Positions 4,111 through 18,741 of a stretch of DNA of 64,000 bases are shown one piece after another. The position numbers and the translations under genes were made by a program. The notes beneath the pieces were generated by a model. That model saw nothing but the letters and a program-made list of their open reading frames with translations. It was not told the DNA's origin and did not search any database. This stretch comes from a virus. The first letter of the stretch is position 1. Each line of letters begins with the position of its first letter. Location of the stretch: positions 74,458 to 138,457 of IMG/VR virus record IMGVR_UViG_3300022752_003639. One strand, written 5' to 3'.

Positions 4111-4207
4111 TTGGATTAAAAAAATTATTGCCGACTATCGTAGGCGTAGGCAAATAAAGAAACGTATAGAAGAGCTTAAAAAGCGAGATCCGTTTATCTA
4201 CAAATGA
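4103..4207 (+). CDS. 34-aa basic peptide (MFNWIKKIIADYRRRRQIKKRIEELKKRDPFIYK)
   Basis: Overlaps the upstream gene, and its TGA overlaps the next ATG (ATGA). Below the ORF-track size cutoff. Confidence 0.6.
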   Translation: MFNWIKKIIADYRRRRQIKKRIEELKKRDPFIYK

Positions 4208-5676
4208 TTATTTGGGGAATAAGTGCTAACAGTCACGATGCTGCCTTGTCTGTGTGGCATGACAAAACAATACAATTTGCTGCTCATAGTGAACGGTATA
4301 GCAAGATTAAAAATGACGGCGATCTACATCCCAAACTTATCGCAGAAGCAAAACAGTATGGCGAGCCAGATCTTGTTGTCTGGTATGAAAATCCTTTACT
4401 AAAAACATTTAGGCAATTTACAGCAGGCCAAGGATGGAACTGGTCTGAGAACAATATAAGACAATATCTTAAACGCTATGACATACACAGTCATGTACAC
4501 ATAGGTTCACATCATCACAGTCACGCCGCTGCCGGTTTTTATACCAGTAAGTTTAATGATGCAACAGTCATCTGTATAGACAGCATCGGTGAATATGAAA
4601 CGCTGACAATTTGGCGAGGTATAGGTAACAATCTCAATAAGTGGTATACGCAGGGTTATCCTCACAGCATAGGTCTTTGGTATAGCGCAATGACTCAAAG
4701 GATAGGCCTCAAGCCCAATGAAGAAGAATATATCCTAATGGGAATGGCAGCATATGGCAACCCAGAAAGATTATATCATGTTATTCTAGAAGATTTTTTT
4801 AAGAGCACAAAGGCTCCTGGAATAAAGTTTAAGAATAATTTGCATAGAGGCTGCAAATGGTGGCGCCCTGATTTAGTTTCCGAACAGGATATGTTCGATA
4901 TAGCAGCGGCTACCCAGGCAGTATACGCTGACCTATTACGATCTATTACACAGTATGCAAGAAAAGTATTACCAAGCAGAAATCTAGTGTTAATGGGCGG
5001 ATGTGCCTTAAACTGTTCTGCCAATAGTCTAATTACTGCCGACTGGGATAATGTATGGATAATGCCTAATCCGGGAGATGCAGGCAGTTCCATAGGTAGT
5101 GTATGCAGTTATTTTCAAGAAAAAATCTCATGGCCAGGTCCATATCTAGGCACAGACATGGGAGGTCCTTATCCTGTTGAGGAAACTATCAATGTTCTTA
5201 GATCTAGAAAAATTGTGGGTATGGCTAATGGTAGAGCCGAGTTTGGGCCTCGTGCCCTTGGACATAGAAGTTTACTGGCGGATCCGAGGGGAAATGATAT
5301 TAAAGATAGTGTGAATGAAATTAAACGCAGACAAAAATTTAGACCGTTTGCACCTGCTATATTAGAAGAACATGCGGCCGATTATTTTATCATGCCCCAA
5401 AATATATCATCCAGTCCTTACATGCAATTTGTAGCAAAATGTAGACATCCTGATCTGTTTCCTGCTATAATTCATGCAGATGGTACAAGTAGAGTTCAAA
5501 CAGTTGGAAAAAATGACAGCCCTGGATTTAGGTCTCTACTAGAAAAATGGTTTGAAGAAACAGGATGTCCTATGTTACTAAACACTAGCCTTAATATAAA
5601 AGGACAACCAATTGTAAATGACGAAATTGATGCGTTAGCATTCGAAGAAAGGTATAATGTTAAAGTTTTTACGTAG
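4204..5676 (+). CDS. Carbamoyltransferase, NodU/CmcH family
   Basis: Motifs SHDAA, HHHSHAA, GGCALN, PGDAG, EFGPRALGHRS, FRPFAP, HADGTSRVQTV and LLNTSLN. Confidence 0.93.
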   Translation: MIIWGISANSHDAALSVWHDKTIQFAAHSERYSKIKNDGDLHPKLIAEAKQYGEPDLVVWYENPLLKTFRQFTAGQGWNWSENNIRQYLKRYDIHSHVHIGSHHHSHAAAGFYTSKFNDATVICIDSIGEYETLTIWRGIGNNLNKWYTQGYPHSIGLWYSAMTQRIGLKPNEEEYILMGMAAYGNPERLYHVILEDFFKSTKAPGIKFKNNLHRGCKWWRPDLVSEQDMFDIAAATQAVYADLLRSITQYARKVLPSRNLVLMGGCALNCSANSLITADWDNVWIMPNPGDAGSSIGSVCSYFQEKISWPGPYLGTDMGGPYPVEETINVLRSRKIVGMANGRAEFGPRALGHRSLLADPRGNDIKDSVNEIKRRQKFRPFAPAILEEHAADYFIMPQNISSSPYMQFVAKCRHPDLFPAIIHADGTSRVQTVGKNDSPGFRSLLEKWFEETGCPMLLNTSLNIKGQPIVNDEIDALAFEERYNVKVFT

Positions 5677-5899
5677 TTTAACATGGCTGTTCTGGTTTGA
5701 GTGGTCTTGCACTATAATTTTATTGGCAGGAGTTATTTTAACTAGTTTTAATATATATCCTACAAATATATGGTTTTTATTAATAGGAAACCTTGGCTGG
5801 ATCGCCCTAGGATATATATGGCGTAAATGGAGTTTAATTATTTTACAAGTTATAATAACACTAATCTATATTGCCGGATTAGTAAAGACTTTACTATAA
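5657..5899 (+). CDS. Small multi-pass membrane protein
   Basis: About three hydrophobic segments in 80 aa. Confidence 0.6.
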   Translation: MLKFLRSLTWLFWFEWSCTIILLAGVILTSFNIYPTNIWFLLIGNLGWIALGYIWRKWSLIILQVIITLIYIAGLVKTLL

Positions 5900-5902
5900 A
5901 TA
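5895..5902 (+). promoter_or_regulatory. T4-type late promoter motif TATAAATA upstream of the DNA polymerase leader
   Basis: Exact T4 gp55 consensus. A gp55 homologue is encoded in the window. Confidence 0.5.
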
Positions 5903-5913
5903 AATTTGAGTAA

Positions 5914-5969
5914 GGTTCGCGAGCCATAAATCGCATAAGTGGTTGTCCAGCCTTAAGTGGAACAAGGAG
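5914..5969 (+). ncRNA. Candidate cis-regulatory RNA: tandem covarying hairpin/H-type pseudoknot in the polymerase 5' UTR
   Basis: Two units, GGTT-C-GCGA-GCCATAAA-TCGC and GGTT-G-TCCA-GCCTTAAG-TGGA, 27 nt apart. The stems show compensatory changes and abut the SD (AAGGAG 5964-5969). Confidence 0.65.
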
Positions 5970-5974
5970 AAATT

Positions 5975-8647
5975 ATGAGTTATGTAGATGCCATCTGGGA
6001 TCGTGATAATGATATTATCAAAGTTGTTGAACGTGATCCTAAAAAGGGTCGCTTATTTCAAGAATACCCTGCAAGATATATATTTTACTACCCGGATTCA
6101 AAAGGTAAGTATAAATCAATTTACGGTGATAATCTTTCTAGAGTATTAACCAAATCATTTAAAGACTTTCAAAAAGAACAAAGAATACATAATAGTCATA
6201 GACTATTTGAAAGTGACATAAACCCCATATTTAGAACACTAGAAGAAAATTATTTAGGTAAAGAAGAACCTAGACTAAATGTAGCATTTTTTGACATCGA
6301 AGTCGATTTTGATCCAGAAAGAGGATACGCTAGTCCAGACGATCCCTTTATGCCTATCACAGCTATTACAGTAAACCTACAGTGGTTAAATGTTTTAATA
6401 ACATTGGCTATCCCTCCAAAAAGTCTTACATTAGAAGAGGCAAAAGAACAGGTAAAAGATTTTCCAAATACACACTTATTTGAATCTGAAGGAGAAATGT
6501 TAGAAACATTCTTAGAATTATTAGATGATGTAGATGTATTGAGTGGATGGAATTCAGAAGGCTATGATATTCCCTATACAGTAAACAGAGTAACTAAAGT
6601 ATTAAGTAAAGAAGATACTAGAAGATTTTGTTTATGGGATCAATTTCCTAAAAAAAGAGAATACGAAAAATACGGCAAGACCGCCGTGACATATGATCTT
6701 ATAGGTCGAGTACATTTGGATTCTTTAGAGCTTTATAGAAAATATACCTATGAAGAACGTCACACTTTTAGATTAGATGCTATAGGTGAAATTGAAATTG
6801 GAGAAAATAAAACAGTTTACGAAGGAACACTTGACCAATTATATAATAACGACTTTCGTAAATTTATAGAATACAACAGACAAGACGTTGCTTTATTAGA
6901 CAAATTAGACCGAAAACTTAAATTTATCGACCTTGCCAATAAAATTGCTCATGAAAACACAGTATTATTACAGACTACTCTAGGAGCTGTAGCAGTAACC
7001 GAGCAAGCAATTATTAATGAAGCACATCATCGAGGTATGATGGTTCCTAGTAGAGCTAAACGCGATGAGCTAGGTGATACAGGAGCAGCGGGCGCATATG
7101 TAGCCTACCCTAAAAAAGGACTTCATGAATGGATCGGAAGCATTGACATCAATAGTCTATATCCAAGTGTAATTCGTGCATTAAACATGGGACCGGAGAC
7201 CATTGTAGGTCAACTACGCCCAGAAAAAACTGAAAAATATATAAACGAACAAATATCTATACATAAAAAAACATTCGCAGGGGCCTGGGAAGGAATGTTT
7301 GGAACGCTAGAATACGAAGCAGTAATTAAAAAAGATAGAGCATTTGAAATTGTTATAGATTGGGAAAACAACGAAACCAGTGTGTTATCTGCGGCAGAGG
7401 TACATAATTTAATTTTTGAAAGTAATAACCATTGGATGCTCAGTGCAAATGGAACTATTTTTACCTATGAAAAAGAAGGCATAATTCCTGGCCTACTGAA
7501 ACGATGGTATGCTGAACGTAAAGAATTACAAGGAAAATTAAAATTAGCTAAAGATGCGGAAAATATTATAGAAGAAGAGTATTGGGACAAGAGACAATTA
7601 GTTAAAAAGATTAATCTTAATAGCTTGTACGGCGCTATTTTAAATCCAGGATGTAGATTTTTTGACAAGCGTATAGGTCAATCAACAACATTAACAGGTA
7701 GATCTATAGCAAAACACATGGCAGGAACAGTAAATGAAATTGTAACAGGTGAGTTTGATCATGTAGGGAAAGCTATAATCTATGGTGATACAGACAGTTG
7801 TTACTTCAGTGCATACTCTACATTAAAAAGAGATATCGAAAAAGGACAAGTACCTTGGAATAAAGATATTATAATTCAACTTTATAATCAAATCGCAGAT
7901 AAAGTAAATCAAACATTCCCAGAATTTATGCTTGCAGCATTTCATTGTCCCAAATCTAGAGGAGATGTTATTAAAGGGGGCAGAGAAATTGTTGCAAGCA
8001 AAGGTTTGTTTATCACTAAAAAACGCTATGCAGTTCTATATTATGATAAGGACGGAAAACGCACAGACGTAGACGGAAAAACTGGCAAAATTAAAGCTAT
8101 GGGCTTAGACTTAAAAAGAAGTGACACTCCTGAATTTATGCAAAAATTCCTAGAAGAAATTCTTGGCAAAGTTCTACACGGCGAACAAGAAAAAGAAATT
8201 TTAGATAGAATTAGTGAATTTCGAACAGAATTCAAAGCTCGCCCAGGTTGGGAAAAAGGTTCGCCTAAACGTGCTAATAATATTACAGAATACGAAGCTA
8301 AAGAAAAGAAAGCAGGCAAGGCTAATATGCCGGGACATGTACGTGCAAGCATAAATTGGAATACTTTACGAAGAATGAATGGAGACAAATATTCCATGCA
8401 AATTGTTGATGGTATGAAAGTTATAGTTTGTAAAGTAAAAGACAATCCATTAGGATTTACCAGCGTGGCCTATCCTACAGACGAATTACGGTTACCAAAA
8501 TGGTTTCAAGAATTACCATTCGACCATTCAGAAATGGAAACAACAATCATTAACAATAAATTAGACAATCTCATCGGTGTTCTAGAATGGGATTTAGAAA
8601 GCACTACACAGGATAATACTTTTGGCAAGTTATTTTCTTTTGAATGA
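5975..8647 (+). CDS. g43: Family B DNA polymerase (T4 gp43-like) with 3'-5' exonuclease
   Basis: Motifs FFDIEVD, SIDINSLYPS, KKINLNSLYG and YGDTDS. Start ATG 5975 follows an SD. No intein seen. Confidence 0.97.
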   Translation: MSYVDAIWDRDNDIIKVVERDPKKGRLFQEYPARYIFYYPDSKGKYKSIYGDNLSRVLTKSFKDFQKEQRIHNSHRLFESDINPIFRTLEENYLGKEEPRLNVAFFDIEVDFDPERGYASPDDPFMPITAITVNLQWLNVLITLAIPPKSLTLEEAKEQVKDFPNTHLFESEGEMLETFLELLDDVDVLSGWNSEGYDIPYTVNRVTKVLSKEDTRRFCLWDQFPKKREYEKYGKTAVTYDLIGRVHLDSLELYRKYTYEERHTFRLDAIGEIEIGENKTVYEGTLDQLYNNDFRKFIEYNRQDVALLDKLDRKLKFIDLANKIAHENTVLLQTTLGAVAVTEQAIINEAHHRGMMVPSRAKRDELGDTGAAGAYVAYPKKGLHEWIGSIDINSLYPSVIRALNMGPETIVGQLRPEKTEKYINEQISIHKKTFAGAWEGMFGTLEYEAVIKKDRAFEIVIDWENNETSVLSAAEVHNLIFESNNHWMLSANGTIFTYEKEGIIPGLLKRWYAERKELQGKLKLAKDAENIIEEEYWDKRQLVKKINLNSLYGAILNPGCRFFDKRIGQSTTLTGRSIAKHMAGTVNEIVTGEFDHVGKAIIYGDTDSCYFSAYSTLKRDIEKGQVPWNKDIIIQLYNQIADKVNQTFPEFMLAAFHCPKSRGDVIKGGREIVASKGLFITKKRYAVLYYDKDGKRTDVDGKTGKIKAMGLDLKRSDTPEFMQKFLEEILGKVLHGEQEKEILDRISEFRTEFKARPGWEKGSPKRANNITEYEAKEKKAGKANMPGHVRASINWNTLRRMNGDKYSMQIVDGMKVIVCKVKDNPLGFTSVAYPTDELRLPKWFQELPFDHSEMETTIINNKLDNLIGVLEWDLESTTQDNTFGKLFSFE

Positions 8648-8656
8648 AAATAATAG

Positions 8657-8685
8657 TTGACATTATCCTTAATTCTAAATATAAT
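8657..8685 (+). promoter_or_regulatory. sigma70 promoter
   Basis: Perfect TTGACA-17 bp-TATAAT. Confidence 0.85.
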
Positions 8686-8702
8686 TATACAAAGGAAAAA
8701 TC

Positions 8703-9437
8703 ATGCAAGATATATTAAAAGACATCGTAAGTCATACACATAATCTAGGCTTTCTCAATATTGTCAAAGTCACAGGTGACGAATCTAGTACAAAAATCAA
8801 TAGTATGGCAGATGACAGAACAGTAATTATGTTCGGTGAAACTGCCAACCCATATCCGGAAATGATAGGCGTTTTTGGAATGCCGCAATTGAATAAATTA
8901 AAATATTTGTTAGACTGCCCTGAATATAAAGAAAACGCCAATATAAACATAACACACATTAATAAAAATGGTGTAGATATTCCGTCAGGTATTCATTTTG
9001 TAAACGAAAATGGTGATTTTAAAAACGATTATAAGTTTATGAATACTGAAATTATCAATGAAAAAATTAAAGATATAAAATTTAGAGGCGTAAAATGGGA
9101 CGTAGAGCTAACGCCTACAGTTCAGTCGATACAGAAATTTAATTTCCAAGTTAATGCTAATAATGAACATACAACATTTTTAGCTAAAACAGATGCGGAT
9201 AAATTAGTATTTTCATTTGGCGATGCTAGTAGTCATAGTGGTGAATTTATATTTGCAAACGGAATCACTGGTAAATTAAGCAAAAGCTGGACATGGCCTG
9301 TTTCATCTGTCCTAGCTATTTTGAAAGCAGCAGATGTGAATAATACTAAAATGAGTTTAAGCAATGAAGGTGCTTTACAAATTACTTTAGATAGCGGATT
9401 GGCCACATATCAATATATCATTCCTGCAACAATATGA
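8703..9437 (+). CDS. Probable sliding clamp (gp45-like)
   Basis: 244 aa, alpha/beta pattern, adjacent to the polymerase; size matches gp45. Confidence 0.55.
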   Translation: MQDILKDIVSHTHNLGFLNIVKVTGDESSTKINSMADDRTVIMFGETANPYPEMIGVFGMPQLNKLKYLLDCPEYKENANINITHINKNGVDIPSGIHFVNENGDFKNDYKFMNTEIINEKIKDIKFRGVKWDVELTPTVQSIQKFNFQVNANNEHTTFLAKTDADKLVFSFGDASSHSGEFIFANGITGKLSKSWTWPVSSVLAILKAADVNNTKMSLSNEGALQITLDSGLATYQYIIPATI

Positions 9438-15753: not shown

Positions 15754-15922
15754 AAATGTTTTTGAAACTATCCTTAGTAAGTACAACTCTAAATCCTTAA
15801 ATGAAATTAGATACGAATTGTATGAGGATATAGTAGAAGAATGTGCAAGATCAGTGGAACATATACGTGTATGGGACAGTAATCTAGGTGATCATATTCG
15901 AAGTAAGATGGGAACTTTATGA
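15740..15922 (+). CDS. Hypothetical protein
   Basis: 60-aa coupled ORF. Confidence 0.5.
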
Positions 15923-16935
15923 GAATAGAAGAGGATATCAAGTTAGACTTTAGGGATGTTCTGATTCGTCCCAAACGTAGCACACTAGGCAGTCGTCGTG
16001 ATGTAGATCTAATAAGATTTTACAAATTTAAGCATAGTAGATATGAATATGAAGGCATACCTATTATGGCTGCTAATATGGACGGCGTGGGCACAATGGC
16101 AATGGCACTAGCTTTAGGTCGGCATAGACTGTTCACCTGTCTTATCAAAACATATAATAAAGACATAGAAAACTTTGCTGAATTTAGAGTATGTAAGGAT
16201 CATTATGCCGTAAGCACAGGTACCAGTTATGAAGACTTTCGTAACTTAAACACCATTGTAACAGGCATCGGCGCTCAATTTATCTGTATAGATGTGGCTA
16301 ATGGCTACAGTGAAAACTTTGGTGACTTTGTTGAAGAAGTAAGAAATCGTTGGCCAGACAAAACTATTATTGCTGGTAATGTTGTTACTGGTGATATGAC
16401 ACAGGAGTTAATTTTACGTGGAGCAGATATCGTTAAAGTTGGTATTGGTCCTGGCAGTGTATGTACTACTCGTGTACAAACTGGTGTTGGTTATCCTCAA
16501 CTCAGTGCAATCATCGAGTGTGCCGATGCGGCTCACGGTCTCGGTGGGCACATTATTGCTGACGGTGGCTGCACTTGCCCCGGAGACGTTGCAAAGGCTT
16601 TTGGTGCTGGCGCAGACTTTGTGATGCTAGGCGGTATGCTGGCTGGACACGATGAAGGTGGTGGCACTGTGGAAAACGGAAAGGTGACCTTCTATGGTAT
16701 GAGTAGTGATACCGCTATGGAACGTCATCACGGAGGCGTAGCAGAATATCGTAGTTCAGAAGGACGTACAGTGAATATTCCATATCGTGGTCCTGTAACA
16801 AAGACTGTACTAGACATTTTAGGTGGGCTGCGTAGTGCCTGTACCTATGTTGGAGCAGAAACTCTTAAACAACTGCCTAAATGCACAACATTTATTAGGG
16901 TCAATAGACAAATTAATGATGTTTTTATTAAGTAA
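15919..16935 (+). CDS. guaC: GMP reductase
   Basis: [46 protein letters not shown] and FYGMSS; lacks CBS domains. Confidence 0.95.
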
Positions 16936-17874: not shown

Positions 17875-18741
17875 ATGAGTAAACTTAAAGTATCAGAACT
17901 TTTTTACAGTGTGCAAGGTGAAGGAAGATACATGGGTGTTCCCAGTGTGTTCCTTCGTGTATTTGGTTGTAATTTTACATGCGACGGATTTGGAATGCCA
18001 AAAGGAGAAAAATCCAATGAACGACATATTATCGCCGAAAATATTTCAAGCATTACACAATACAGAGATCTACCTTTGGTTCATACAGGGTGCGATTCTT
18101 ATGCTAGTTGGGATCCTAAGTTTAAGGATCTTAGTCCTGTGCTCGAAACAGATAGTATTGTGGACACAATCATGGATATGCTCCCTCACAAAGAATGGAG
18201 GAAAGAACACCTAGTTATAACAGGAGGAGAACCACTTCTAGGTTGGCAGCGTAGTTATCCTGACTTACTTAATCATCCTAAAATGAAAGGACTTACAGAA
18301 ATAACGTTTGAAACAAACGGGACTCAAGAAATTTCACGGAATTTTAGTGAATATCTTAATGATTGGCTAGCGCCAGATGATCAAACACAATTCGAAAACT
18401 GGAGAGAATTAACCTTTTCAGTAAGTCCTAAATTATCAGTTTCTGGAGAACGTTGGGAAGATGCCATAAAACCAGATATCGTAGTTTATTATGAATCATT
18501 TGGCTATACATACTTAAAATTTGTAGTAGCAAGTAACGAAGATGTAGCAGAAGCAGAAGATGCGGTAAACGAGTATAGAAAGGCTGGATTTAAAGGACCA
18601 GTTTACATAATGCCATTAGGCGGTGTTGAATCAGTATATAGCTTAAATAATAAAAATGTAGCACTCATGGCTATGAAAAAAGGATGGCGTTATAGTGATA
18701 GGCTTCAGGTGCCGCTCTTTAAGAACGCATGGTCGACATGA
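17875..18741 (+). CDS. queE: 7-carboxy-7-deazaguanine synthase
   Basis: ELFYSVQGEG, VFLRVFGCNFTC...CD (long insert between cluster Cys residues), ITGGEP, ETNG and SVSPK. Confidence 0.93.
   Translation: MSKLKVSELFYSVQGEGRYMGVPSVFLRVFGCNFTCDGFGMPKGEKSNERHIIAENISSITQYRDLPLVHTGCDSYASWDPKFKDLSPVLETDSIVDTIMDMLPHKEWRKEHLVITGGEPLLGWQRSYPDLLNHPKMKGLTEITFETNGTQEISRNFSEYLNDWLAPDDQTQFENWRELTFSVSPKLSVSGERWEDAIKPDIVVYYESFGYTYLKFVVASNEDVAEAEDAVNEYRKAGFKGPVYIMPLGGVESVYSLNNKNVALMAMKKGWRYSDRLQVPLFKNAWST

Follow-up and report, generated by a model that had tools for sequence, protein, structure and literature searches.

The window analyzed here is a stretch of 64,000 nucleotides (nt) of virus DNA, positions 74,458 to 138,457 of IMG/VR record IMGVR_UViG_3300022752_003639, a 138-kb record (G000) that is 35% complete. 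It carries polB, the gene for a replicative DNA polymerase of the gp43 type, and the 75-nt spacer between the stop codon of the preceding open reading frame (ORF) and the polB ATG (5975-5977) contains two copies of a small H-type pseudoknot that adjoin the Shine-Dalgarno (SD) sequence. This leader is almost certainly a cis-regulatory RNA element, and the twin pseudoknots most likely limit the amount of polymerase that is made. A look-up of sequencing runs found near-identical sequence in freshwater and lake DNA metagenomes, and a DNA search of a phage DNA collection (50,697 records) gave no match to window positions 5600-6600. The features of the locus are listed below, with S1 denoting the pseudoknot helix, S2 the hairpin stem, and L1 to L3 the loops.

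5657-5899, + strand: DUF6552 ORF, 80 amino acids (aa), directly upstream of polB; stop codon TAA at 5897-5899
5914..5934, + strand: unit 1, H-type mini-pseudoknot, GGUU-C-GCGA-GCCAUAAA-UCGC, from the sequence and from relatives; S1, GGU 5914-5916 with GCC 5923-5925; S2, GCGA 5919-5922 with UCGC 5931-5934; L1, UC 5917-5918; L3, AUAAA 5926-5930; no L2
5935..5940, + strand: purine-rich linker AUAAGU between the units
5941..5961, + strand: unit 2, SD-proximal mini-pseudoknot, GGUU-G-UCCA-GCCUUAAG-UGGA, from the sequence and from relatives; S1, GGU 5941-5943 with GCC 5950-5952; S2, UCCA 5946-5949 with UGGA 5958-5961; L1, UG 5944-5945; L3, UUAAG 5953-5957
5964..5969, + strand: SD sequence AAGGAG, starting 2 nt past S2 of unit 2, with its GGAG core 4 nt past
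5975..8647, + strand: polB, family-B replicative DNA polymerase, gp43 type, 890 aa (Pfam DNA_pol_B plus exonuclease domain); the gene that the element would regulate

The polB product matches the structures of RB69 gp43 over its full length (E = 6e-60, residues 29-835), and its N terminus, MSYVDA, is kept in relatives. The first-pass annotation, made from the letters of the window, had described two units of identical geometry at the ribosome-binding site of polB; both are present, in a register that was fixed by pattern search, and their GCC triplets are offset by 27 nt. The two compensatory stem changes that it noticed are likewise there, the stems of the two units differing by a G-C to U-A and a G-C to C-G double change, and each unit has an 8-nt loop, as does the T4 gp43 operator. 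Taken alone, the S2 hairpins have energies of -5.4 and -3.7 kcal/mol (median in relatives, -5.4 to -6.0). The bare pattern is not rarer in this single window than expected by chance (3 matches with one mismatch, against 2.4 expected from shuffles), and the minimum-free-energy fold of the leader, computed in a model that excludes pseudoknots, is unremarkable (z = -0.33). With the count in the window at the chance level, the proof of the element rests on relatives.

Covariation in the polB leaders of relatives

A protein-guided scan of IMG/VR returned more than 588 polB relatives, and leaders were examined in the best 80 of these, whose polymerases are 79-87% identical to that of the window. The tandem occurs at the same place in all 80. 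Across the 66 distinct tandem leaders (alignment A1), 95.8% of the cells form standard pairs, compared with 79.0% in shuffles (none of 500 reached the observed value) and 18-46% when the pairing partner was slid out of register. Changes on both sides are found at 10 of the 15 pairs, including all nine hairpin pairs: S2 of unit 1 is paired in 94% of cells with double changes at all 5 pairs, and S2 of unit 2 in 99% with double changes at all 4. The covariation is far above both controls, which excludes chance or a repeat at the level of DNA, and the tandem element in the polB leader is real. Collecting homologous leaders and building a covariance model, as the first-pass annotation had proposed, thus yielded conservation and covariation, with no match in Rfam 15.

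The two parts of each unit evolve very differently. There are 14 to 15 different S2 sequences per unit (e.g., GCGA/UCGC, GAUCA/UGAUC, CCG/CGG, GUGA/UCAC, UGAGA/UCUCA, and GAUUG/CAAUC), while GG(U/C), GCC, and A-Y-A-A-R stay fixed. Spacing is also kept, the GCC-to-GCC distance ranging from 26 to 31 nt and falling at 28 to 30 nt in 60 of the 66 leaders (29 +/- 1 nt in most).

The pairing of the 5' GG with the loop GCC, proposed earlier as an H-type pseudoknot, holds throughout. All 66 leaders pair S1 of unit 1 without a mismatch, in only four combinations: GGU:GCC (48 leaders), GGC:GCC (9), AGU:GCU (6), and GGU:ACC (3). Its first pair accordingly switches from G-C (60 leaders) to A-U (6), and its third is usually U-G (51), with C-G (7) and U-A (3) also seen. 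In unit 2, after correction of the register, S1 is GGU:GCC in 62 leaders and GGC:GCC in 4. On the polB tree, the AGU:GCU form lies at two separate places within the tandem clade (L012 and the L010 group), and a distant single-unit lineage (L251, L272) also has it. In the AGU:GCU rows, both partners change in unit 1 while unit 2 remains GG/GCC, indicating that S1 pairs within its own unit; pairing of S1 across units was dropped on this reading of the sequences.

G-U pairs are frequent (44 of 644 S2 pairs, and U-G as the usual third pair of S1), and since these would be A-C on the other strand, the fold exists only as plus-strand RNA. L1 measures 1 to 3 nt over an S2 of 4 to 6 bp, L3 measures 5 to 6 nt over the 3-bp S1, and none of the 66 tandem leaders has an L2 (0 nt), S2 running straight into GCC. 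Both units therefore have what defines an H-type pseudoknot, two covarying helices and sterically possible loops, and are predicted from sequence to adopt that fold in three dimensions. Two other structures were considered and dropped when the sequences were read, without a dedicated analysis of either: loop-loop kissing between the units, whose loops are not complementary, and a likeness to the tRNA T arm (GGUUCG..CC), which is not conserved in relatives.

In most tandem leaders, the GGAG core is 1 to 2 nt past a 4-bp S2; counted from the first base of the S2 3' strand, it starts at a distance of 5 to 6 nt in 38 of 66. That the units guard the ribosome-binding site, as had been suggested, is borne out insofar as they adjoin the SD sequence, but in the window S2 ends 2 nt before AAGGAG, a weaker arrangement than in most relatives. 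The proposed extension of unit 2 to the edge of the SD sequence (TTG/CAA in the DNA; UUG 5943-5945 with CAA 5963-5965) can indeed pair, but it requires that A5962 be bulged and competes with the third pair of the pseudoknot.

Distribution and history of the element

A covariance model of one unit (R1) was searched against ten virus records, the window's own and nine related ones. R1 finds exactly two units per genome in the five tandem-clade records, both in the polB leader (E = 4e-7 to 6e-3), with the next-best match at an E value of at least 0.16; in G001, a 331-kb tandem-clade record that is 93% complete, the two polB-leader units are the only matches. On the window's own 138-kb record, unit 1 scores 27.9 bits (E = 1.2e-5) and unit 2 scores 19.1 bits (E = 0.006). 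G006 (97% complete) has a single polB-leader unit (E = 0.047); an extra match in that genome (E = 0.2) was rejected as chance, as it lies inside the ORF of a repeat protein and has GCG in place of GCC. R1 has no match in G007 (97% complete) or in G008-G010.

A scan of IMG/VR for the pattern irrespective of context recovered 20 structurally valid tandems, 19 of which lie directly 5' of polB and the remaining one ahead of a 41-aa ORF that abuts polB. In this last case (L170 8940-9130, minus strand, and 5386-8942), the ORF is Cys rich and abuts the polB ATG, and polB is itself split into parts of 543 and 402 aa around a 238-aa ORF on the opposite strand. A loose version of the pattern, GGY-N(4-10)-GCCNYAA, occurs in five relatives at the level of controls except at the polB sites. 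Among the genomes searched, the element is exclusive to the polB leader.

Among cultured phages, the nearest relatives are Phosso, Atu_ph07, K64-1, and 121Q; their leaders, when read, proved to lack the element, so that no cultured host system is at hand. Their polymerases are 39-48% identical to that of the window over the best tblastn segment. No Rfam 15 family matches the whole window at the gathering score, and a search of 401 nt around the leader (5700-6100) at E <= 10 returned nothing except an unrelated small RNA at E = 8; four related leaders were also without an Rfam match. Literature searches found no earlier description of a twin pseudoknot in a polB leader. The twin pseudoknot adds a new RNA motif to a type of regulation already known, the autogenous or translational leader operator, and does not constitute a new category.

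A second scan of IMG/VR, seeded with the Phosso polymerase, reached polB lineages 60-67% identical to that of the window. Some of these sister lineages, at 62-66% identity, have a single unit right at the start site, and in most such leaders the 3' strand of S2 itself supplies the SD sequence or the GG of GGAG, as in GGC-CUU-CCG-GCC-AUAAA-CGGAG. In place of unit 1, these leaders have another covarying hairpin (hairpin X) ahead of the single unit. Examples of hairpin X, which follows a conserved GAGUCG, are GCUC-ACGUUAC-GAGC and GUUGG-CUAUA-CCAAC (L299, L300, L301, L321 ~326-400; L251, L272), and some single-unit leaders have a palindrome, GUACUG..CAGUAC, overlapping a TATAAGTA box. Other sister lineages are without any leader. 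In one of these, L259, a DUF6552-like ORF runs 14 nt past the polB start, suggesting that relatives lacking the element use translational coupling instead of a separate leader; the overlapping ORF (L259 97-414) encodes a membrane protein of 105 aa.

In a polB tree (FastTree, rooted on a Rak2-like outgroup), the tandem leaders form one clade, whose sister clade has single-unit leaders at the base of both halves. From this order, read by parsimony, the SD-proximal unit seems the older part, the distal copy seems to have taken the place of hairpin X at a later time, and two or three losses would have followed.

Promoter-like signals and neighboring genes

Two promoter-like signals precede the leader.

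5442..5471, + strand: sigma-70-like promoter TAGACA-18-TATAAT with TG upstream; 11 of 12 consensus positions match, and the assignment is a consensus match only
5895..5902, + strand: TATAAATA box resembling a T4 late promoter, overlapping the DUF6552 stop codon TAA (5897-5899)

A short polB transcript probably starts from the TATAAATA box, with the conserved GAG at 5908-5910 as its likely +1 region; in relatives, a TAAATA box followed by 5 to 6 nt and then GAG is kept ahead of unit 1. TAAATA boxes also occur 8 to 25 nt 5' of the SD sequence in many other genes of the 138-kb record, for example, ahead of the 244-aa ORF that follows polB (window 8703), and the box-to-SD distance of about 60 nt at polB is unusual among them. 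Canonical TTGACA-N17-TATAAT promoters are present in this record as well. The sigma-70-like promoter sits within the 3' part of the carbamoyltransferase ORF and is a possible early promoter, from which transcripts could read through the DUF6552 gene into polB, making the element internal. No U-tract terminator was seen when the leader sequence was read.

Two unusual phage auxiliary genes lie nearby: a NodU/CmcH-type carbamoyltransferase two genes 5' of polB (window 4204-5676) and, in a downstream cluster, a GuaC/IMPDH-family enzyme (window 15919-16935).

A candidate translational operator and its alternatives

We propose that the polB mRNA 5' leader contains a cis-acting translational operator consisting of two copies of an approximately 21-nt H-type pseudoknot. 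In each copy, the 3-bp S1 (GG[U/C]:GCC) would stack on the freely covarying, 4- to 6-bp S2, and the conserved A-Y-A-A-R loop would cross the minor groove of S1. The closed pseudoknots, or a factor bound to them, would keep the 30S subunit off the SD sequence, such that synthesis of the polymerase falls. The most likely agent would be the gp43-type polymerase of the phage itself while it is free of primer-template DNA, in the manner of T4 and RB69. Having two sites could raise affinity or allow cooperative binding, and protection of the transcript end is a possible further role of the 5' copy. We infer both the binding partner and the direction of control, and, taken whole, with the polymerase as effector, this reading is tentative, though it is the likeliest of those considered.

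Control of translation initiation is suggested by the position of the element at the SD sequence. The polymerase is favored as the factor because the element is confined to polB, because the enzyme is a full-length homologue of the self-repressing gp43 of RB69 and T4, and because RNAs selected in vitro (SELEX) that fill the cleft of HIV-1 reverse transcriptase (RT) share the pseudoknot design. Identical letters in S1 and L3, fully diverged S2 stems, and a constant spacing of 29 +/- 1 nt suit a single factor that reads two sites. To our knowledge, autogenous translational control of a replicative polymerase has been established experimentally only in T4, RB69, and RB49, in each case with a simple hairpin.

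In T4 and RB69, gp43 is an autogenous translational repressor that acts through a hairpin in the leader; in the 8-nt loop of this hairpin, UAAC (T4, RB69) or UAAA (RB49) is decisive, and the operator is patchy among T4-related phages, some of which lack autoregulation (PMC3014915). The element described here resembles these gene 43 operators in lying in the leader of the orthologous gp43-type polymerase, adjoining or just upstream of the SD sequence, in its stems of 4 to 6 bp, 8-nt loop, and YAA(N) core, and in its patchy occurrence among related phages. The core is UAAC in T4 and RB69 and UAAA in RB49, and it is UAAA, UAAG, or CAAA here. The structures differ in that the T4 operator is a single plain hairpin, AGCCU[AAUAACUC]GGGCU, without a pseudoknot, whereas there are two units here, each with a covarying GG(U/C):GCC helix, and in that the YAA core is in the middle of the T4 loop but at the 3' end of the loop here. 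The T4 and RB69 hairpins share their top 10 bases, including the -UAAC- loop, a degree of identity that does not extend to the present units.

The HIV-1 RT pseudoknots selected in vitro (F1Pk/F2Pk) occupy the primer-template cleft of the enzyme (PMC3561961). Like the units here, they are H-type pseudoknots with a conserved G-C-rich stem 1, no L2, and a generic second stem (3 to 6 bp in the aptamers), and their ANAA-consensus loop, to which the loop here is comparable, lies in the minor groove of stem 1 (PMC3561961). Their stem 1 is UCCG:CGGG (4 bp), compared with GGY:GCC (3 bp) here, and because they are artificial and were selected against an unrelated polymerase family, the likeness is one of design and is not evidence of kinship or binding. 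A natural counterpart is the leader pseudoknot of T4-type gene 32, which is also H type, precedes a phage replication gene, and serves autogenous translational control there (PMC3014915). That pseudoknot lies far upstream of the ribosome-binding site and seeds cooperative binding along an unstructured A/U-rich tract, whereas the present element has two units, abuts the SD sequence, and belongs to polB.

Several points weigh against the polymerase as effector. The T4 operator being a plain hairpin with another loop sequence and no pseudoknot, homology of the RNAs is not demonstrable, and the YAA core common to both is short. A G-C-rich S1 and an A-rich L3 would be needed by any stable H-type pseudoknot and are no proof of a protein that reads the sequence. 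The SD sequence in the window is outside any helix, many close polB lineages lack the element, and the sequencing runs listed as containing the stretch are DNA metagenomes, with no RNA data set among them.

The same constraint on H-type pseudoknots bears on a leader that acts independently of any effector, in which the SD-proximal unit sets a low, fixed rate of initiation and the 5' unit protects the end from RNases that depend on the 5' end. Minor-groove A contacts that stabilize the pseudoknot would suffice to explain the letters of S1 and L3; the S2 hairpins have a moderate stability of their own (-5.4 and -3.7 kcal/mol); and the plain hairpin X of the sister lineages, near the presumed 5' end, is in the classic position of a stabilizing stem-loop. 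A weaker SD sequence could, however, give a fixed low rate, end protection does not need a second full consensus copy at a constant spacing of 29 +/- 1 nt, and the element is limited to one gene of an approximately 330-kb genome, all of which make an effector-independent role unlikely.

The structural and positional evidence would serve equally for an operator bound by another protein, such as a RegA-like repressor, the phage single-strand-binding protein, or a host factor, which would occupy both units and block initiation. Two equal sites at a fixed spacing suit a dimer, and T4 also employs RegA and gp32 in addition to gp43 as translational repressors (PMC3014915). General repressors of the RegA type, however, have many target mRNAs, whereas polB is the one gene that the element precedes; control of the gp32 type sits on gene 32; and no candidate protein has been identified. 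The loops have no GGA, which CsrA needs (a reading of the sequence, with no dedicated analysis). An operator for another protein thus appears rather improbable.

A third alternative is a tandem riboswitch, each unit of which would bind a small molecule (a 7-deazaguanine intermediate or a nucleotide), close the fold, and hide the SD sequence. The topology is that of translational pseudoknot riboswitches, with the 3' strand of the second helix over the SD sequence and an A-rich third loop, and tandem small aptamers exist, such as guanidine-II. The closest comparison is preQ1-I (RF00522), also a small, translational H-type pseudoknot with an A-rich 3' loop whose second-helix 3' strand overlaps the SD sequence, but preQ1-I has a 5-bp P1 and an L2 with the ligand-pairing C, compared with 3 bp and no L2 here. 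The resemblance to preQ1-I noted in the first-pass annotation does not hold up: no covariance model matches, including those of preQ1-I, -II, and -III, there is no L2 to supply the pairing C, and the UUC that follows GG is not conserved in relatives. A unit of 20 to 21 nt, with no L2 and a variable pair at the S1/S2 junction (U-G, C-G, or U-A), offers no evident pocket, and the element is tied to polB and never stands ahead of metabolic or transport genes.

The link to deazaguanine enzymes made in the same annotation fares no better. A QueE-like radical-SAM gene lies 12 kb downstream (window 17875-18741; phrog_2076, E = 3e-52), without a leader of the polB type, and is conserved at 56-72% identity in 8 of the 9 related records searched, retained alike by relatives that have the element and by those that lack it, one of which is 97% complete. 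The 517-aa ORF adjoining the QueE-like gene, called DpdA-like earlier, has no Pfam or PHROG family match, and the Pfam TGT model (PF01702) found nothing in the window's own record and four relatives, a result that is uninformative for a divergent DpdA. A ligand-sensing leader is therefore quite improbable, and its specific form, the smallest natural tandem riboswitch, with 21-nt units binding a nucleobase-like ligand (a 7-deazaguanine precursor or a deoxynucleoside triphosphate), is more doubtful still; were it true, the polymerase would be made only when the building blocks for the phage's modified DNA are available. That the tandem has no function, being a duplication that arose by chance or a repeat acting in the DNA (for instance, as a binding site for a protein), would agree with the chance-level pattern count in the single window and the ordinary fold of the leader, but has next to no probability given its presence in 80 of 80 best relatives and compensatory changes, G-U pairs included, that keep the RNA pairs.

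At approximately 60 nt and with rich covariation, the element is a compact candidate part for the control of translation and merits an Rfam entry. The single-unit, tandem, and absent versions in close relatives form a natural test set for how the polymerase or another factor reads RNA. If the operator is indeed bound by the polymerase, a large group of uncultured giant phages from fresh water would have recreated the autogenous logic of T4 with another, more elaborate RNA.

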